DNA of 32,000 nucleotides, from contig ACYB01000004.1 in assembly GCA_000175855.1 (NCBI GenBank), forward strand, positions 1 through 32,000. The letters run 5' to 3'. Below, in pieces: positions 435 to 23,364 of this stretch; the first letter of the stretch is position 1, and the number at the start of each line of letters is the position of its first letter. The notes under the pieces are model-generated. The model had not been told where the DNA came from. It was given only the letters and a program-made list of their open reading frames with translations, and searched no databases. Source of the stretch: Raphidiopsis brookii D9 (GTDB lineage: Bacteria > Cyanobacteriota > Cyanobacteriia > Cyanobacteriales > Nostocaceae). Position numbers and translations under genes: made by a program.

Positions 435-2921
435 ATGGAGTTACCTACGATGATGTTTCCTGATGAATTCTCTCTTATTCAACCGGTAATCCCTATTGAT
501 ACTGGTGGATTGTCAACCTCCTCATCAGTTGGGTATGGACTGGACTTAGAACAATCCCTACAATATGGAAATCAACAAATTCAGTCCCTATCAACTACAA
601 ATTTATCACTACTTGACAACACTCTTACCAGTGCGCGCAACATTGGCAGTCTTACCGGTAGCCAAACCTTCTCGGACTTTGTTGGCAGCAGCGACACTAA
701 TGATTACTACCGCTTTAATTTGATCCAGTCCAGTAACTTTAATCTCAGTTTAACTGGACTAAGTGCCGATGCGGATACCCAATTATTAAATAGCAGCGGT
801 ACTGTAATCCAAAGTTCCCAGAATGCCGGTAGGGCAAGTGAATCCATTAGTAGATCCCTAAGTGCTGGCACTTATTACGTAAGAGTTTACCCTAATCTTG
901 GCAATACTAACTATAGTCTCACTCTTTCCGCTGCTCCTGCAGATCAAGCTGGTAATACACTAGCTGCTGCCCGTAACATTGGTACTCTTAGCGGTAGCCA
1001 AACCTTCTCGGACTTTGTTGGCAGTGTTGACACCAATGATTACTACCGTTTTGACCTCACCCAAACCAGTACCTTTGGTCTATCCCTGAATGGACTAAGT
1101 GCCAATGCGGATACCCAATTATTAAATAGCAGCGGTACTGTAATCCAAAGTTCCCAGAATGCGGGCACGACAAGTGAATCCATTAGTAGATCCCTAAGTG
1201 CTGGCACTTATTACGTAAGAGTTTACCCTTACAGTGGCAATACTAACTATAGTCTCACTCTTTCCGCTGCTCCTATAGATCAAGCTGGTAATACACTAGC
1301 TGCTGCCCGTAACATTGGTACTCTTAGCGGTAGCCAAACCTTCTCGGACTTTGTTGGCAGTGTTGACACCAATGATTACTACCGTTTTGACCTCACCCAA
1401 ACCAGTACCTTTGGTCTATCCCTGAATGGACTAAATGCCGATGCGGATACCCAATTATTAAATAGCAGCGGTACTGTAATCCAAAGTTCCCAGAATGGGG
1501 GTACGACAAGTGAATCCATTAGTAGATCCCTAAGTGCTGGCACTTATTACGTAAGAGTTTACCCTTACAGTGGCAATACTAACTATAGTCTCACTCTTTC
1601 CGCTGTGTCGAGTCCACCACCACCCACATCTGGATTCAATTCTACCTACGGCTATGGAATGATTAACGCTGCTAGATCTGTAGCTGCTGCTTTAGGACAA
1701 AGCAGTCCCTTCCCTGATGTAGCTAATCTAGGGGGAAACAATTGGGGCAATGATCTAGTCGGATCACCAGAAGTTTGGTCTCGTGGTTATACTGGACAAG
1801 GTGTGGTAGTAGCGGTAGTAGACACTGGTGTGGACTATACCCACTCTGATCTGGATGCCAATATTTGGGTCAATACCAGAGAAATATCAGGTAACGGGAT
1901 CGACGATGATGGTAATGGTTATATTGACGACATTCGAGGTTGGGACTTTGTCGGCAATGATAATGATCCTCGAGACGGCAATAGCCATGGTACCCACGTT
2001 GCTGGCACCATTGCTGCGGAAAATAATGGTACTGGTGTCACTGGTGTTGCCTACAATGCCCGTATTATGCCTGTAAGGGTGTTAGATAATAATGGAAGTG
2101 GCAGTAATCTCGGTGTAGCCAATGGTATTCGCTATGCTGCTAATAATGGTGCCCGAGTAATTAACCTGAGTCTGGGTGGTGGTTATAGTTCCGACATTTA
2201 CTCAGCCATTCAGTACGCCACTACTAGGGGATCCATTGTAGTTATGGCTGCTGGCAATGATGGATCATCCCAACCTGGTTACCCAGCTTACCATGCGACG
2301 GAGTACGGATTGGCAATTGGTGCGGTTGATAGTAGTAGCAACATTGCCAGCTTCTCCAATCGGGCTGGGACTGATAATGCGATGCGCTACGTGGTTGCAC
2401 CTGGGGTAAGTATCTACTCCACAGTTATTAACAATGGCTATGCCACATATAGTGGCACTTCTATGGCTACACCCCATGCAGCTGGTGTGATCGCCTTAAT
2501 GCTAAGCGCTAATAGTTCTCTTACTCCAGCTCAGGTGCGCGACATTGTTACTAGTAGAACTACTTATCTTGCCGGTGTGAATTCTTTTGGGGTCGCGACA
2601 ACATCCTACTCAACACAGTATAATAGGTCTAGTCTTGATTACGATCTACCTTCTGGAAACCCTGGTGTTGAGACTGTTCAGGTGTCCAATAATACTATTA
2701 ATAATATGATCACTACTAATTATTACCCCTCCTACCTAAACCAGAGTCTTACCTTTAACCTCCCCCTAATGATCTCAGTCCCACAACTGATTCCACTAGC
2801 ATCAACCCATCAAGTCAAGATAATGATTACGTCTACCTGGAGGATAATGGTAACTACTCCTTCAATCTCTCAACTGTTCTGGGACTCTCGGGTAAACCAA
2901 TGTGGACTATCCCTAGTTTAA
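435..2921 (+). CDS. Peptidase S8 (subtilisin-like serine protease) with three N-terminal PPC-type repeat domains
   Basis: 828-aa ORF from ATG. S8 triad contexts VVAVVDTGVD (Asp), GNSHGTHVAGTIAA (His) and YSGTSMATPHAAG (Ser). Three ~112-aa repeats (DTNDYYRF..GTYYVRVYP..NYSLTLSA). No recognisable signal peptide. The frame of the last ~55 codons is doubtful because a second frame is open from the C5 run at 2762-2766. Confidence 0.85.
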   Translation: MELPTMMFPDEFSLIQPVIPIDTGGLSTSSSVGYGLDLEQSLQYGNQQIQSLSTTNLSLLDNTLTSARNIGSLTGSQTFSDFVGSSDTNDYYRFNLIQSSNFNLSLTGLSADADTQLLNSSGTVIQSSQNAGRASESISRSLSAGTYYVRVYPNLGNTNYSLTLSAAPADQAGNTLAAARNIGTLSGSQTFSDFVGSVDTNDYYRFDLTQTSTFGLSLNGLSANADTQLLNSSGTVIQSSQNAGTTSESISRSLSAGTYYVRVYPYSGNTNYSLTLSAAPIDQAGNTLAAARNIGTLSGSQTFSDFVGSVDTNDYYRFDLTQTSTFGLSLNGLNADADTQLLNSSGTVIQSSQNGGTTSESISRSLSAGTYYVRVYPYSGNTNYSLTLSAVSSPPPPTSGFNSTYGYGMINAARSVAAALGQSSPFPDVANLGGNNWGNDLVGSPEVWSRGYTGQGVVVAVVDTGVDYTHSDLDANIWVNTREISGNGIDDDGNGYIDDIRGWDFVGNDNDPRDGNSHGTHVAGTIAAENNGTGVTGVAYNARIMPVRVLDNNGSGSNLGVANGIRYAANNGARVINLSLGGGYSSDIYSAIQYATTRGSIVVMAAGNDGSSQPGYPAYHATEYGLAIGAVDSSSNIASFSNRAGTDNAMRYVVAPGVSIYSTVINNGYATYSGTSMATPHAAGVIALMLSANSSLTPAQVRDIVTSRTTYLAGVNSFGVATTSYSTQYNRSSLDYDLPSGNPGVETVQVSNNTINNMITTNYYPSYLNQSLTFNLPLMISVPQLIPLASTHQVKIMITSTWRIMVTTPSISQLFWDSRVNQCGLSLV
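618..1604 (+). repeat. In-frame tandem triplication with 336-bp period (units 618-953, 954-1289, 1290-1604)
   Basis: Direct reading. Units 2 and 3 differ at only 4 positions that I could find over ~315 aligned nt. Unit 1 is more diverged in its first half and near-identical in its second half. Confidence 0.95.
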
Positions 2922-4309: not shown

Positions 4310-5140
4310 TTAAAGTGATGATCGGTCAGTTAAAATTTCATAACCCGTTTCCGTGACTAACACAGTATGTTCAAATTGGGCAGATAAAGCATTATCAACA
4401 GTAACAGCAGTCCATCTATCACTTAATATTTTAGTAGTTTTTGAGCCAGCATTAATTATGGGTTCAATGGCCAAGGTCATACCAGCACGTAATTTAACAT
4501 TAGGAATTTCACGAGTTCTATAATTAAAAACTGCAGGTTCTTCATGGAGGTTTCTACCCACCCCATGACCTGTGAACTGCTCTACCACATTAAATCCAGT
4601 TGTTTTAACATAGTCTTCAATCCCACCAGCAATATCAGCCAGGTGGGCACCAGCTTTAACCTGTTCTATACCTGCATATAAAGCTTTCTCAGCTACTTCA
4701 ATCAGTTTTGCTGCATCCGGACCAACACTGCCCACAGCAATGGTAATGCAAGAGTCACCATGGAAACCCTGATAGTATGCGCCCGTGTCAACCTTTAATA
4801 CATCTCCCGAGCGAATCACTTTTTTATGACTGGGAATACCATGTACCACCTCGTGGTTGATGCTAGAACATATTGAAGCTGGAAATCCATGATACCCCTT
4901 AAAACTGGGAGTTGCACCCATTTCTCGGATACGTTTTTCTGCGTGTGCATCCAGATCCGCAGTGGTCATCCCCGGTTCAACCAATTCAGAAATTTCTTTG
5001 AGAACAGTAGCAACAATCCTAGCTGATTGTCGCATGATATCAACCTCACGAGGAGATTTGATTTCTATTCCCCGACGTTGCTGTGATATGGAGGGTTTAG
5101 CCTGCACTGGTAAGGTAATTAATTCGCTGAAAATGTTCAT
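4310..5140 (-). CDS. map: Type I methionine aminopeptidase
   Basis: 276-aa ORF. MetAP metal-ligand contexts [37 protein letters not shown] and QFEHTVLVT. Confidence 0.9.
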
Positions 5141-20253: not shown

Positions 20254-20590
20254 TTACTTAGCTTTATCAGCTTGCTCTACAGCTGCTTGAGATGCAGCCG
20301 TAGTACCCATACGAATTTCGGAAGTAAAGGAGGCCATACTAAAACCCCCAAAACGTTTAAGCACTCCCACACGCATCCGCAAATTGGGACTAGCAAACCA
20401 TAGCCGCTCTTCCGAGGACATGGTTTCATACTCTGTGATCAGAGTTAATGCACCATCGTTACCCATCTTATAGGTTCCAGCTACTGGCATTTTTTCTGCA
20501 TAACCCATTTCCCTCAATAGTTTACCTTCACCCGGTTTAAGTAAGTCGGGTACAGTGACTAAAACTGTGGAACCTTCATGTTTTGGTTGA
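20254..20590 (-). CDS. cpcS: Phycobiliprotein bilin lyase CpcS/CpeS family, exon 2 (5' boundary ambiguous, 20584-20590)
   Basis: The frame is open from 20604 and has no ATG (the track start is TTG). It encodes ..[61 protein letters not shown].., the C-terminal half of CpcS. Confidence 0.75.
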
Positions 20591-20627
20591 GTCGATGGAG
20601 GGTATTATCCTTCGCACCTCTCGTTTA

Positions 20628-20661
20628 AATCTGGGCGTGCGATTTTCACCGCACCCAGCTT
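20628..20661 (-). ncRNA. Group II intron domain V
   Basis: AAGCUGGGUGCGGUGAAAAUCGCACGCCCAGAUU: lower helix CUGGGU/GCCCAG, AC bulge, upper helix GCGGU/AUCGC and GAAA tetraloop, with AGC at the 5' base. Confidence 0.85.
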
Positions 20662-20670
20662 CCGATGTTC

Positions 20671-21792
20671 TTAGCTATAGCTTTTGCCTGGAGTGTTATA
20701 AAGGGTGTAACTTTGAACCTTACCATTTCCAGGAGAGTTTTGACTGGAGTTTACTTGTGGAAACGCCTTATTTATCAGTTGCTTACTGATTTGTCGGTTT
20801 TGTTTTGTTTCGCGATTAAACACCTTGAAAGCTCTGTACTTTATATGGTAGAGGGAAAATCTCGCCCCACTCATGTTGCAGTGGCGATGGTAATTTCTCC
20901 ACTCTCCTACGATCAAGCTCAATTTCTGTGCCTTGATAGTAGCTCCATAATTCGAGTTGTTGACTATGTGTTTCACTTTCTGGCGAAAAGCTTGGAAGTC
21001 TTTTAGTCCGGGGACACATCTCAACTTTCCGTTTTTTTGCACCTGAAAATGCCAAGTGAGAAAATCAAACCCATCTGTCGCTGCAATTAGTTTGGTTTCT
21101 TCCGTAGCTAATTCTATGCCATATTTTGCCAGGGAATGACGAACAGTGTCAAGTATTGTTTCTGGATGATCCTGGGGTTGGAGGATAATCACTATTTCGC
21201 TCCCATACCAAACTAATTTGCCTATATCTTCTATTCCCTTGAAGAAAATATTAGCCAGCAAGGAGGTTATCGGGTTCTCCGCTAAAACACATTCTGACCT
21301 AATCCCCCGTTTGATTTCCACAGGAGCTATTAGTCTTTTGCAAATTGCTCTTGGGTTGATTTTTTCCAGAGATTTCCCCAAATCAATTTTGATCACTCTT
21401 GTTTGATGACCAGGAATTTCCGATAGATATACTTGTAACATTATTTGTACATCCTGGGGGGAAAATCCTCGTTTCCATCCATAACTGTGGAGGTGGAAAT
21501 TAGTTTCATGAGCTGGCTCTAAGGCGTATTTAATCACCCAATGCCATGCTTGTTGTCTAATGGTAGGGGATAAAACCTCTGTAAGAGAATTTGCCTGTAA
21601 TACTTGACGAATGGCCAGTAATTGTGCTGACGTAGATTTTAAGATTAGCTTTTGAAGAGACTTAGCCTTGCGCAGGTCTCCAACTCGAACGGCTTTGTAC
21701 ACTCGTTTTTGTAAGCGGAAGAGATTGCGGCGAAATTGTCGCCAGGGTAACCTCTGCCAAGATTCACTAACATTTCTGTTGTGTCTAATCAT
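20671..21792 (-). CDS. Group II intron-encoded protein, degenerate RT / maturase-like (no YADD, no En domain)
   Basis: 373 aa. RT-0 region SWQRLPWRQFRRNLFRLQKRVYKA..LLAIRQV, LEP..SYGW.RG (RT2/3), GFDFLTWHF (RT7), and X/thumb-like LIVGEWRNYHRHC. The YADD position reads WYGSEIVII. Confidence 0.8.
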   Translation of the reverse strand: MIRHNRNVSESWQRLPWRQFRRNLFRLQKRVYKAVRVGDLRKAKSLQKLILKSTSAQLLAIRQVLQANSLTEVLSPTIRQQAWHWVIKYALEPAHETNFHLHSYGWKRGFSPQDVQIMLQVYLSEIPGHQTRVIKIDLGKSLEKINPRAICKRLIAPVEIKRGIRSECVLAENPITSLLANIFFKGIEDIGKLVWYGSEIVIILQPQDHPETILDTVRHSLAKYGIELATEETKLIAATDGFDFLTWHFQVQKNGKLRCVPGLKDFQAFRQKVKHIVNNSNYGATIKAQKLSLIVGEWRNYHRHCNMSGARFSLYHIKYRAFKVFNRETKQNRQISKQLINKAFPQVNSSQNSPGNGKVQSYTLYNTPGKSYS

Positions 21793-22348
21793 ACTTTAAC
21801 TCCAACTTGTGTATTCTGAACACCTCCGACCAATTACGGTCAGTCCTACCCGAAGTGAGGGAATTTTGCTTCTCGTCAAGCCTACTTGGGTTTTAACCTT
21901 CCCTAGACCCTCAATTCGTTTTTATTCGTTCCCCCGGTTAGATTGTTAGTTTCCTTAGGTGTAGTCAATTCAACTACTGGTTTCCCAAGACTCTGACCGC
22001 TAATCCAAGAAAATGCGGCGGGAAATATATCCAGTCAAGTCGGGTTTTAATATTGTGTCCCGCTTATGGGTAAGTTGCTTTTTTAGACTCTGTTTCACCG
22101 TAGAAACACCCCATTAGCACCAGTGTCATCCCACAACGGATGTCTGATTGCACCCTGTTCCCAGCTTCACCCTCCAGTTACCGAGTCTGGTCAGTGTGGG
22201 CAGATCGGGAGTCACACCTGAGTCTGGTGGATGGGACTTTCACCCATATCCAACTGAGAGTTCAACCTTCATCTACGTTCTATTAATAGTTGAGGTTGGT
22301 GAGGTTATTACGGATTAGTTACCGATGTTAGCCCACAACGAATCGCAC

Positions 22349-22581
22349 TCTTGGTCCCATTCCATGGTTCCTTTCCAGGTGACTCTTGCTCCACAAGAAG
22401 CTGCATCGGGAATAATGGAATACTGTTCACACAGTTTAATTACTTCTGGATGGTCTACGGTGAGTATGTCTATTACAATGTCTGATTTACCATCTTCTGA
22501 CTGTTTAAAGGCTAAATGGTGGCTAGTACGGTGGGAAAACCACTTTCCAGCACTTAATTCGAAAAACTCTTCCACATTCAT
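22349..22581 (-). CDS. cpcS: Phycobiliprotein bilin lyase CpcS/CpeS family, exon 1 (77 codons + 2 nt)
   Basis: ATG at 22581. [49 protein letters not shown]. The reading frame then runs into the intron ([10 protein letters not shown]). Confidence 0.85.
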
Positions 22582-22665: not shown

Positions 22666-23364
22666 CTAGACCATAGGCCCAAATTTCATACTCCACTTCA
22701 CAGTGGACTTTTTTTTTAGGGATATGGTTGCAGCTTGAGAAACATGGGGATGACTATCCTTTTCTAAGTATTTTAGAGCTGAAATACTTTTAGCTGTGGG
22801 TAGGTTCCCTAGGGCTTCTGCTAATCGTTGTCTAACTAACCAGTCCTCTGATTGTACAAATCGCAAAATATGATCTACTGACTCAATTGACCTAATTTCT
22901 CCTAACGCTGAAATCGCTGCTTGCTGAATTACTATCTCCTCACTATCCAAAGCTTTAATTAGAATATTATATGCACGCTTATCTTTTATATTACCCAAGG
23001 CTACTGCTGCACTAAATCTAACTAACCATTCCGTATCTTCGTAGAAAGCTCTTGACAAAGGTTCTACTGCTCTATTATCTCCTAAATATCCTAGAGCCCC
23101 AGCTGCATCCGCACGAATCCCATAATCGGGATCGGTTTCTAGAATTCTCACTAGAATGGAATAACATTCTGAAGTTGATTTAATTCCTAATGCAAACACT
23201 GCCATAGAGCGTAGCTGTATGGATTCGTCATTAAGAACTTTTTTGATTAGGGGAACTGCATCCTCCGCAGGAACATGTCGTAATTGTGTTAGAGCTATCA
23301 TGCGATCGCGCAAGTTCGGACTTGCTAACTGGGTGGAAATTTCCTCTAAGCTGGGAACATTCAT
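22666..23364 (-). CDS. PBS-lyase HEAT-like repeat protein (CpcE/NblB-like)
   Basis: 232 aa. Reiterated HEAT-like units (RSMAVFALGIK, RADAAGALGYLGDNRAVEPL, VRFSAAVALGNIKDKRA, QQAAISALGEIRSIESV, VRQRLAEALGNLPTAKS). Confidence 0.75.
   Translation of the reverse strand: MNVPSLEEISTQLASPNLRDRMIALTQLRHVPAEDAVPLIKKVLNDESIQLRSMAVFALGIKSTSECYSILVRILETDPDYGIRADAAGALGYLGDNRAVEPLSRAFYEDTEWLVRFSAAVALGNIKDKRAYNILIKALDSEEIVIQQAAISALGEIRSIESVDHILRFVQSEDWLVRQRLAEALGNLPTAKSISALKYLEKDSHPHVSQAATISLKKKSTVKWSMKFGPMV

Follow-up and report, generated by a model that had tools for sequence, protein, structure and literature searches.

The window analysed here, a stretch of 32,000 nt from the genome of Raphidiopsis brookii D9 (contig ACYB01000004.1, positions 1 to 32,000), carries on its minus strand, in this order, a gene for a HEAT_PBS-repeat protein (23364..22666), the phycobilin lyase gene cpcS, split in two by a group II intron, and psbE, psbF, psbL and psbJ. 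The N-terminal piece of cpcS is the 88-aa open reading frame (ORF) 22581..22315, which ends in a non-homologous tail of 10 residues, and the C-terminal piece is the ORF 20517..20254, whose frame is open in the ORF list upstream of its nominal TTG start, as had been noticed earlier. An initial annotation, made from the sequence alone, had taken the two for halves of one CpcS/CpeS lyase separated by a group II intron of ~1.76 kb in the same orientation, with expression of the gene dependent on splicing. Our results agree with this in a covariance-model hit, in covariation within the intron family, in covariation of the exon-binding sites with the exons and in an exact intron-less junction. The joined halves match Pfam CpeS (PF09367) over the whole profile (positions 1-170 of 170, E 1.4e-71, scored on a 189-aa version with the 3' end at 20591) and the CpcS structure 3BDR from Thermosynechococcus (E 1.4e-78). 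The intron is inserted after codon 77 plus 2 nt, and psbEFLJ begin on the same strand 153 nt past the cpcS stop codon, in keeping with the ~150 bp first estimated. The intron ORF and the exon-1 ORF are identical to EFA74339.1 and EFA74340.1 of R. brookii D9, and both proteins also have an exact match in Cylindrospermopsis raciborskii CENA303 (GCA_002114155.1, contig NBYN01000031.1).

The insertion itself is already published, for sequences identical to the window. The CyanoLyase paper (Bretaudeau et al., NAR 2013, PMC3531064) reports that in C. raciborskii CS-505 and R. brookii D9 CpcS-III contains a group II intron, and states that the insertion led annotators to call two ORFs. This is the identical intron at the identical site, and the one sentence that the paper gives to it says nothing of its boundaries, structure or class, of the condition of its protein, of its distribution or of any proof that it is spliced. 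The genome paper for these strains (Stucken et al. 2010) does not mention introns, reverse transcriptase (RT), maturase or cpcS. More generally, housekeeping genes of cyanobacteria are known to carry group II introns (PMC4424553, a 2015 review).

The exact boundaries of the intron can be read from an uninterrupted copy of the gene. At 90% the exon-1 ORF falls into a cluster of 13 members, one of which, P0259, has 187 aa and contains ...MEWDQEKHEG..., and the contig of P0259 (L026; IMG 3300042579, Ga0451500_02554, 1257 bp) holds an uninterrupted cpcS-psbE-psbF-psbL. By BLASTN, bases 1-247 of L026 correspond to 22595-22349 of the window and bases 248-1257 to 20584-19575, and L026 is 100% (247/247) and 99.6% (1006/1010) identical to the upstream and downstream flanks of the intron-bearing contig L003. 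Because the junction is unambiguous, the intron must run from 22348 to 20585, a length of 1764 nt. It starts with GUGCG at 22348, as first annotated, and ends with UCAACC, 6 nt downstream from the end originally placed at 20591. Removal of 20591..22348 does join the halves in frame, but it adds two residues (WDQDQPKHEG, MEWDQDQPKHEG) that are absent from all orthologues, and it conflicts with L026 and with conservation of the intron family through ...ACC. The Rfam match implies a 3' end at 20586, which would break the frame and falls 1 nt before the junction seen in L026. With the junction at 22349/20584 the spliced RNA would read GGGACCAAGA joined to AAAACATGAAGG, that is, ...ATGGAATGGGACCAAGA followed by AAAACATGAAGGTTCC. 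The translation is then 187 aa, the length of the orthologues, and reads WDQEKHEG where an orthologue has WDEEKHEG. Nostocales CpcS orthologues are 73-86% identical to this protein, and the junction removes a 2-aa gap from the comparison; the two halves are thus colinear with the orthologues, as first supposed, and only the junction originally proposed was 2 aa too long.

L026 has one of two origins: it is spliced RNA from a metatranscriptome assembly, or it has very recently and precisely lost the intron. It starts 14 nt upstream from the cpcS ATG and finishes 1 nt past the psbL stop codon; ends so near to gene boundaries would fit an RNA-derived assembly, and they prove nothing. In the literature we found nothing to tell whether the sample, IMG 3300042579 (Ga0451500), was RNA or DNA. 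An exact look-up of the two conceptual spliced CpcS proteins in the protein collection found neither of them. A scan of metagenome contigs with the end of exon 1 gave 117 matches; L062, which has the intron, was the only true cpcS among them, and no further intron-less junction appeared.

The ribozyme was placed by a single Rfam match in the whole window, RF00029 (domains V-VI), on the minus strand at 20663..20586, where domain V had first been recognised; its 48.5 bits lie above the gathering score of 40. Relatives of the intron were retrieved at 15 or more loci in Nostoc, Anabaena, Dolichospermum, Microcoleus, Phormidium, Pseudanabaena and others. All of them share the GUGCG at 22348-22344 (5' boundary GUGYG) and start with GUGCGAUUCGUU, and at the other end the relatives L006-L020 read ...UCGACUC(A/U)ACC and diverge thereafter, which is independent support for 20585 as the last intron base. 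In place of a 3'-terminal AY the intron ends in ...AACC; the last bases are CC in the entire family, and in the cpcS copy this end is fixed by L026. Domain V has the AGC triad, a 2-nt (AC) bulge and a GNRA (GAAA) loop. The G of its triad faces an A (G.A) rather than the U of the canonical G.U, family-wide (domain V of L003-L020), and the pair next to it covaries, A-U with G-C. The whole family has both the CC end and the G.A, and neither is decay specific to the cpcS copy.

The Rfam models for D1-D4 did not match the intron even at E up to 1, and the structure of domains I-III was therefore derived from the family, by RNAalifold on the 5' 540-560 nt of 13 introns. The consensus has 140 pairs in 27 helices, and 76 of the pairs show compensatory changes. 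Paired cells amount to 97.5%, against 86.4% in shuffled alignments, none of 500 of which reaches the observed value; when the partners were slid by 1-3 columns as a control, 33-45% of cells were paired and 9-16 pairs were compensatory. The hairpin noted earlier in the 5' part (GGGUGAAAGUCCC, 22247-22231) is one of the conserved and covarying helices. The window intron keeps 136 of the 140 pairs, and most full-length relatives keep 135-140 (126 in the outlier L016). Domains V-VI add 26 pairs, with compensatory changes at 14. In the Rfam alignment and in the RNAalifold consensus a GA is bulged, which puts the predicted branch adenosine of domain VI at A20592, 7 nt from the 3' splice site; A20592 is not the penultimate base of the intron, as the initial annotation had it. 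Between the lineages that carry the cpcS intron the ribozyme has diverged by 1.3-2.3%, and domains V-VI by 0%, at a synonymous divergence (dS) of 0.08-0.15, so that it evolves 5-10 times more slowly than synonymous sites.

Recognition of the exons can be followed through the same family. The loop of the stem 22019-21996 is hypervariable and holds in each relative the complement of the last 5-6 bases of its own 5' exon, for example UGUUCG with CGAACA in L009, CAAUCU with AGAUUG in L011, UGAGGC with GCCUCA in L013 and CUUUUG with CAAAAG in L016; covariation with the last six exon bases is seen in L009, L010, L011, L013, L014, L015, L016 and L019. Two UCUUGG hexamers had been offered as exon-binding site (EBS) 1. 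That at 22010-22005 lies in this loop and covaries with the exons, while that at 21990-21985 belongs to a conserved junction (AAGAGUCYAGGGAAUCC), does not track the exons of the relatives and is a coincidence. The earlier candidate for EBS2, paired with AUGGG as its intron-binding site (IBS), also held up: it lies in a variable loop that fits the upstream exon in L011, L014 and L016 and by 4 bp in L013, with no clear match in L009 and L010. A strict search for an EBS3 column gave nothing, and alignment column 394 emerged once G-U pairs were allowed. In each of the 10 sequences its base can pair with the one that opens the 3' exon (U-A, A-U or G-U), which supports 20584 as the first base of exon 2. 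With this EBS3 candidate, and with the T. elongatus TeI4h maturase (6ME0_C) as the best solved homologue of the intron protein, the intron is, judged by these features, probably of the IIB type (chloroplast-like lineage). The coordinates are collected in Table 1.

Table 1. Positions of the cpcS exons, the intron and the parts of the intron within the window
Feature	Position	Strand	Basis or remark
cpcS exon 1	22349..22581	-	ATG at 22581; ends ...GGGACCAAGA; ORF list and L026 bases 1-247
cpcS exon 2	20254..20584	-	begins A AAA CAT GAA...; stop codon 20256-20254; L026 bases 248-1257
Group II intron, 1764 nt	20585..22348	-	GUGCGAUUCGUU...UCGACUCAACC; RF00029 match, L026 junction, family alignments of 5' and 3' ends
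Domain I	21925..22342	-	RNAalifold consensus and pair counts
EBS2 ACCCAU	22066..22071	-	variable domain I loop
IBS2 AUGGG	22356..22360	-	complementary to CCCAU 22070-22066
EBS1 UCUUGG	22005..22010	-	loop of stem 22019-21996; pairs with CCAAGA
IBS1 CCAAGA	22349..22354	-	pairs with EBS1
EBS3 candidate U	21968	-	pairs with first exon-2 base A20584; alignment column 394
Domain II	21851..21918	-	helix 23 of consensus
Domain III hairpin (GUAA loop)	21826..21843	-	helix 26 of consensus
Domain IVa-like hairpin	21809..21823	-	conserved helix 27; immediately precedes the GGAG Shine-Dalgarno sequence and start codon (ATG) of the intron ORF
Intron-encoded protein, 373 aa	20671..21792	-	in domain IV; Pfam and NCBIfam scans, alignment with relatives, dN/dS, AlphaFold2 and Foldseek
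Domain V (AGC triad, GAAA loop, AC bulge)	20627..20662	-	RF00029 and consensus
Domain VI	20588..20623	-	RF00029 and consensus
Predicted branch-point adenosine	20592	-	bulged GA

One relative bears a likeness to the cpcS site. In L009 (Anabaena sp. UHCC 0187; 2300-2452 and 4665-4800) a full-length intron relative interrupts an ORF reading MEFEWDE before the intron and HKNQQNQKKHGLSFEEA after it, which is putatively BrnT/DUF497-toxin-like. The 5' exon of L009 (GAATGGGACGAACA) is very similar to the site in cpcS (GAATGGGACCAAGA), EWD being encoded in each, and the likeness gives a hint of how the intron may have come to occupy cpcS.

More than 100 contigs carry both split ORFs; they belong to C. 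raciborskii (CS-505, CS-508, S07, MVCC14, KL1, CENA302/303), C. curvispora, R. brookii and R. curvata. The same cpcS site is occupied in four lineages, and cpcS is split in every named Cylindrospermopsis/Raphidiopsis genome in the protein clusters, among whose representatives there is no intact CpcS closer than 86% identity. Between the lineages the ratio of nonsynonymous to synonymous change (dN/dS) in the CpcS exons is 0.08-0.10 at a dS of 0.13-0.15, which indicates strong purifying selection. Selection therefore acts on gene and intron alike throughout the clade, and this would require splicing. Genome annotation shows only two orphan fragments, and a few mismatches in the ribozyme are specific to the lineage, so that one could think of cpcS as a pseudogene killed by a dead intron, with another lyase taking its place. 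We regard this as extremely improbable, given an exon dN/dS of ~0.1, the preservation of both frames and of the exact junction across lineages, the slow evolution of the ribozyme and the 136 consensus pairs that it keeps, and the existence of a precise intron-less or spliced form in L026.

In all contexts retrieved the intron is present as one copy at one site. A scan of genome contigs (one genome per species) with the intron protein found only full-length relatives of 44-59% identity and no Cylindrospermopsis copy, whose representative may be absent or masked. The element could still move if RT and endonuclease were supplied in trans by a full-length member of the family; L026 would then be an empty-site allele and the intron polymorphic for presence and absence. 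L026 does have the exact intron-less site and is near-identical to the flanks of L003, and intron proteins of T. elongatus do mobilise ORF-less relatives in trans (PMC2882425). Against this, all the named genomes have the split gene and just one of the 13 members of the exon-1 cluster is uninterrupted, the 120 full-length proteins most similar to the intron protein include none from Cylindrospermopsis, and the single copy has a single site wherever it is seen. Continued mobility in trans is in our opinion very improbable.

The ORF in domain IV had been described as RT/maturase-like. Its position stands, and the protein that it encodes has turned out to be degenerate. In a Pfam scan RVT_N is strong, GIIM scores 22.3 (cut-off 23) and RVT_1 16.2 (cut-off 29.6), while the NCBIfam equivalog for group II RT/maturases (TIGR04416) gives 87.5 against a cut-off of 300. 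The best full-length homologues, among thousands, are 503-aa cyanobacterial RT/maturases that are 47-50% identical. In an alignment with full-length relatives the protein lacks ~42 residues spanning RT motifs 0-2 and ~12 residues of RT motif 4 (the TPQGG region), has YGSE where the relatives have YADD, and wholly lacks the C-terminal region of ~90 residues with the DNA-binding and HNH endonuclease domains. The N-terminal extension and the thumb/X domain are retained. The last ~35 nt of the ORF are homologous to the final codons of the full-length ORFs, which indicates that the endonuclease was removed by a deletion internal to the ORF and in frame, with the 3' side of domain IV left in place. 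In three more lineages (93%, 90% and 86% protein identity) we find the same deletions, YGRE or YERE in place of YADD, and the same cpcS-psbEFLJ context. The most divergent of the lineages with the cpcS intron, L005, retains 8 residues of the RT4 region that the others have deleted, which indicates stepwise decay. In L005 (270-1487) the stop codon of the ORF is also lost, and the frame reads on for 32 codons through domain V to give 405 aa. An AlphaFold2 model of the protein (predicted local distance difference test score 72.6) has as its best Foldseek match chain 6ME0_C, the maturase of the T. elongatus TeI4h ribonucleoprotein (TM 0.61), which is also the best sequence match among solved structures.

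Decay of this kind could mean that the ORF is a functionless remnant, slowly decaying within an intron that is spliced autocatalytically or with a host factor or a maturase encoded elsewhere. The stepwise deletions, the lost stop codon of L005, the GIIM score just under the Pfam cut-off and the dN/dS of the RT remnant (0.34) and of the C-terminal tail (0.57) would all suit this reading. But the ORF is open and without frameshift in four lineages at dS 0.08-0.19 and in 31 cluster members, and every deletion is in frame. Pairwise dN/dS of the protein is 0.25-0.37 in all six comparisons, with an excess of synonymous change that is significant in each (Fisher p 1.5e-3 to 1e-7). The most constrained parts are the N-terminal extension (dN/dS 0.06) and thumb/X (residues 251-345; 0.19), the RNA-binding and maturase parts. 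We therefore find a functionless remnant unlikely. On this sequence evidence the protein appears to be RT-dead and without endonuclease, yet maintained by purifying selection, and it is most plausibly a MatK-like, predicted maturase-only protein. The domain IVa-like hairpin in front of its start is, by analogy with LtrA and TeI4h, its probable binding site. We found no published description of the degenerate protein of the cpcS intron in the literature searched.

We consider it likely that the 1764-nt group II intron that splits cpcS, the gene for a CpcS-III type phycocyanobilin lyase, is immobile and is spliced with the help of its own maturase-only protein. The gene would be transcribed together with the intron, the ribozyme would fold into domains I-VI, and the exons would be held by EBS1, EBS2 and EBS3. 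The 5' splice site at 22349/22348 would then be attacked by A20592, and ligation of the exons at 22349/20584 would produce an mRNA for the lyase of 187 aa. The intron would have come from a mobile family common in filamentous cyanobacteria and become fixed and immobile in Cylindrospermopsis/Raphidiopsis. Its protein would have shed the catalytic core of the RT and the endonuclease and kept the N-terminal extension and thumb/X, and most likely it now acts only as a maturase that aids folding and splicing of its own intron, as MatK does in chloroplasts. Some observations weigh against this account. L026 may be an intron-less DNA allele rather than spliced RNA, and where the ORF begins, the scarcity of synonymous changes may be due to a constraint on RNA rather than on protein. 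The G.A of domain V and the CC at the 3' end are non-canonical, yet they are shared with full-length and presumably mobile relatives. At 4 of the 140 pairs in domains I-III the cpcS lineage has mismatches that its relatives lack, and it has two more in domain VI, a C.A at the base and an A.C in the distal stem.

Comparison with known systems shows what may be particular to this intron. Its mobile cyanobacterial relatives (L006-L020) share the ribozyme architecture, the GUGCGAUUCGUU and CGACUC(A/U)ACC ends, the G.A of domain V and the positions of the EBS loops, and their proteins are 44-51% identical to that of the window. They differ in having 503-aa proteins with a full RT (YADD) and HNH endonuclease, in occupying many sites and in being ~2.14-2.22 kb long, compared with 1.76 kb here. 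TeI4h of Thermosynechococcus elongatus (6ME0; Mohr et al. 2010, PMC2882425) is, as the cpcS intron probably is too, a cyanobacterial intron of IIB type, and it lies in an essential gene, and its protein, the closest solved homologue, has a mildly degenerate active site, YAGD (PMC2882425). That protein, however, has its full length and its endonuclease, and a single residue change is enough to make it highly mobile (PMC2882425), whereas in the protein of the window whole RT motifs and the endonuclease domain are gone. Degenerate intron proteins are rare in bacteria, O.i.I2 being 'the only known example' in the review cited above (PMC4424553). Like the cpcS intron, O.i.I2 (Oceanobacillus iheyensis radC) lies in a conserved gene and has an open ORF for a protein without YADD and other RT motifs (PMC4424553), but it belongs to the mitochondrial-like (ML)/IIA lineage and its host is a Firmicute, with no mention of clade-wide comparative or selection data. 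The chloroplast trnK intron with MatK, and plant mitochondrial nad1 intron 4 with MatR, resemble the cpcS intron in that an immobile, vertically inherited intron sits in a needed gene and encodes a protein that has lost RT motifs and kept domain X. MatK differs in being organellar and of IIA type, in being unalignable across RT motifs 0-4 and in serving several introns, whereas the cpcS intron has a free-living cyanobacterium as its host, a less advanced decay and one evident target intron.

What appears to be new, as detail of a known kind, is the maturase-only state, the presence throughout the clade as a fixed intron, and the exact anatomy. It seems to us rather probable, with less assurance than for the spliced intron and its maturase, that here, in a clade of free-living cyanobacteria, a group II intron has followed a chloroplast-like route, in which it has become immobile and vertically inherited in a photosynthesis-related gene, with a selected maturase that is RT-dead and endonuclease-less. 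After O.i.I2 it would be only the second such case in bacteria, and the first to be backed by comparison across a whole clade, and nothing of such a reading was found in the literature searched. The intron would thus be one of the rare group II introns of bacteria to have evolved to an 'organelle-like' end state and, since it is found in the phylum ancestral to chloroplasts, a tractable model for the origin of MatK-type maturases. The assembly of light-harvesting pigments in a bloom-forming, toxin-producing cyanobacterium would hinge on RNA splicing; if this is true, chromophorylation of the phycobilisome would depend on an intron-encoded splicing factor and so be possibly open to regulation. 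Annotations of Cylindrospermopsis and Raphidiopsis show cpcS as two orphan fragments and a 'reverse transcriptase N-terminal domain protein', and with the exact exon coordinates the 187-aa CpcS can now be annotated correctly.

The HEAT_PBS-repeat protein (22666-23364, minus strand), which is phycobilisome lyase-like, is encoded directly upstream from cpcS. Between the two genes there is a promoter-like site at 22648-22620; a promoter scan found no more sites than in shuffled sequence, and it does not fix the transcription start of cpcS. Elsewhere in the window, within the plus-strand ORF 435..2921, positions 632-1605 form a tandem repeat of 336 nt (2.9 copies, 93% matches), which amounts to a repeated protein module of ~112 aa in an ORF of 828 aa.

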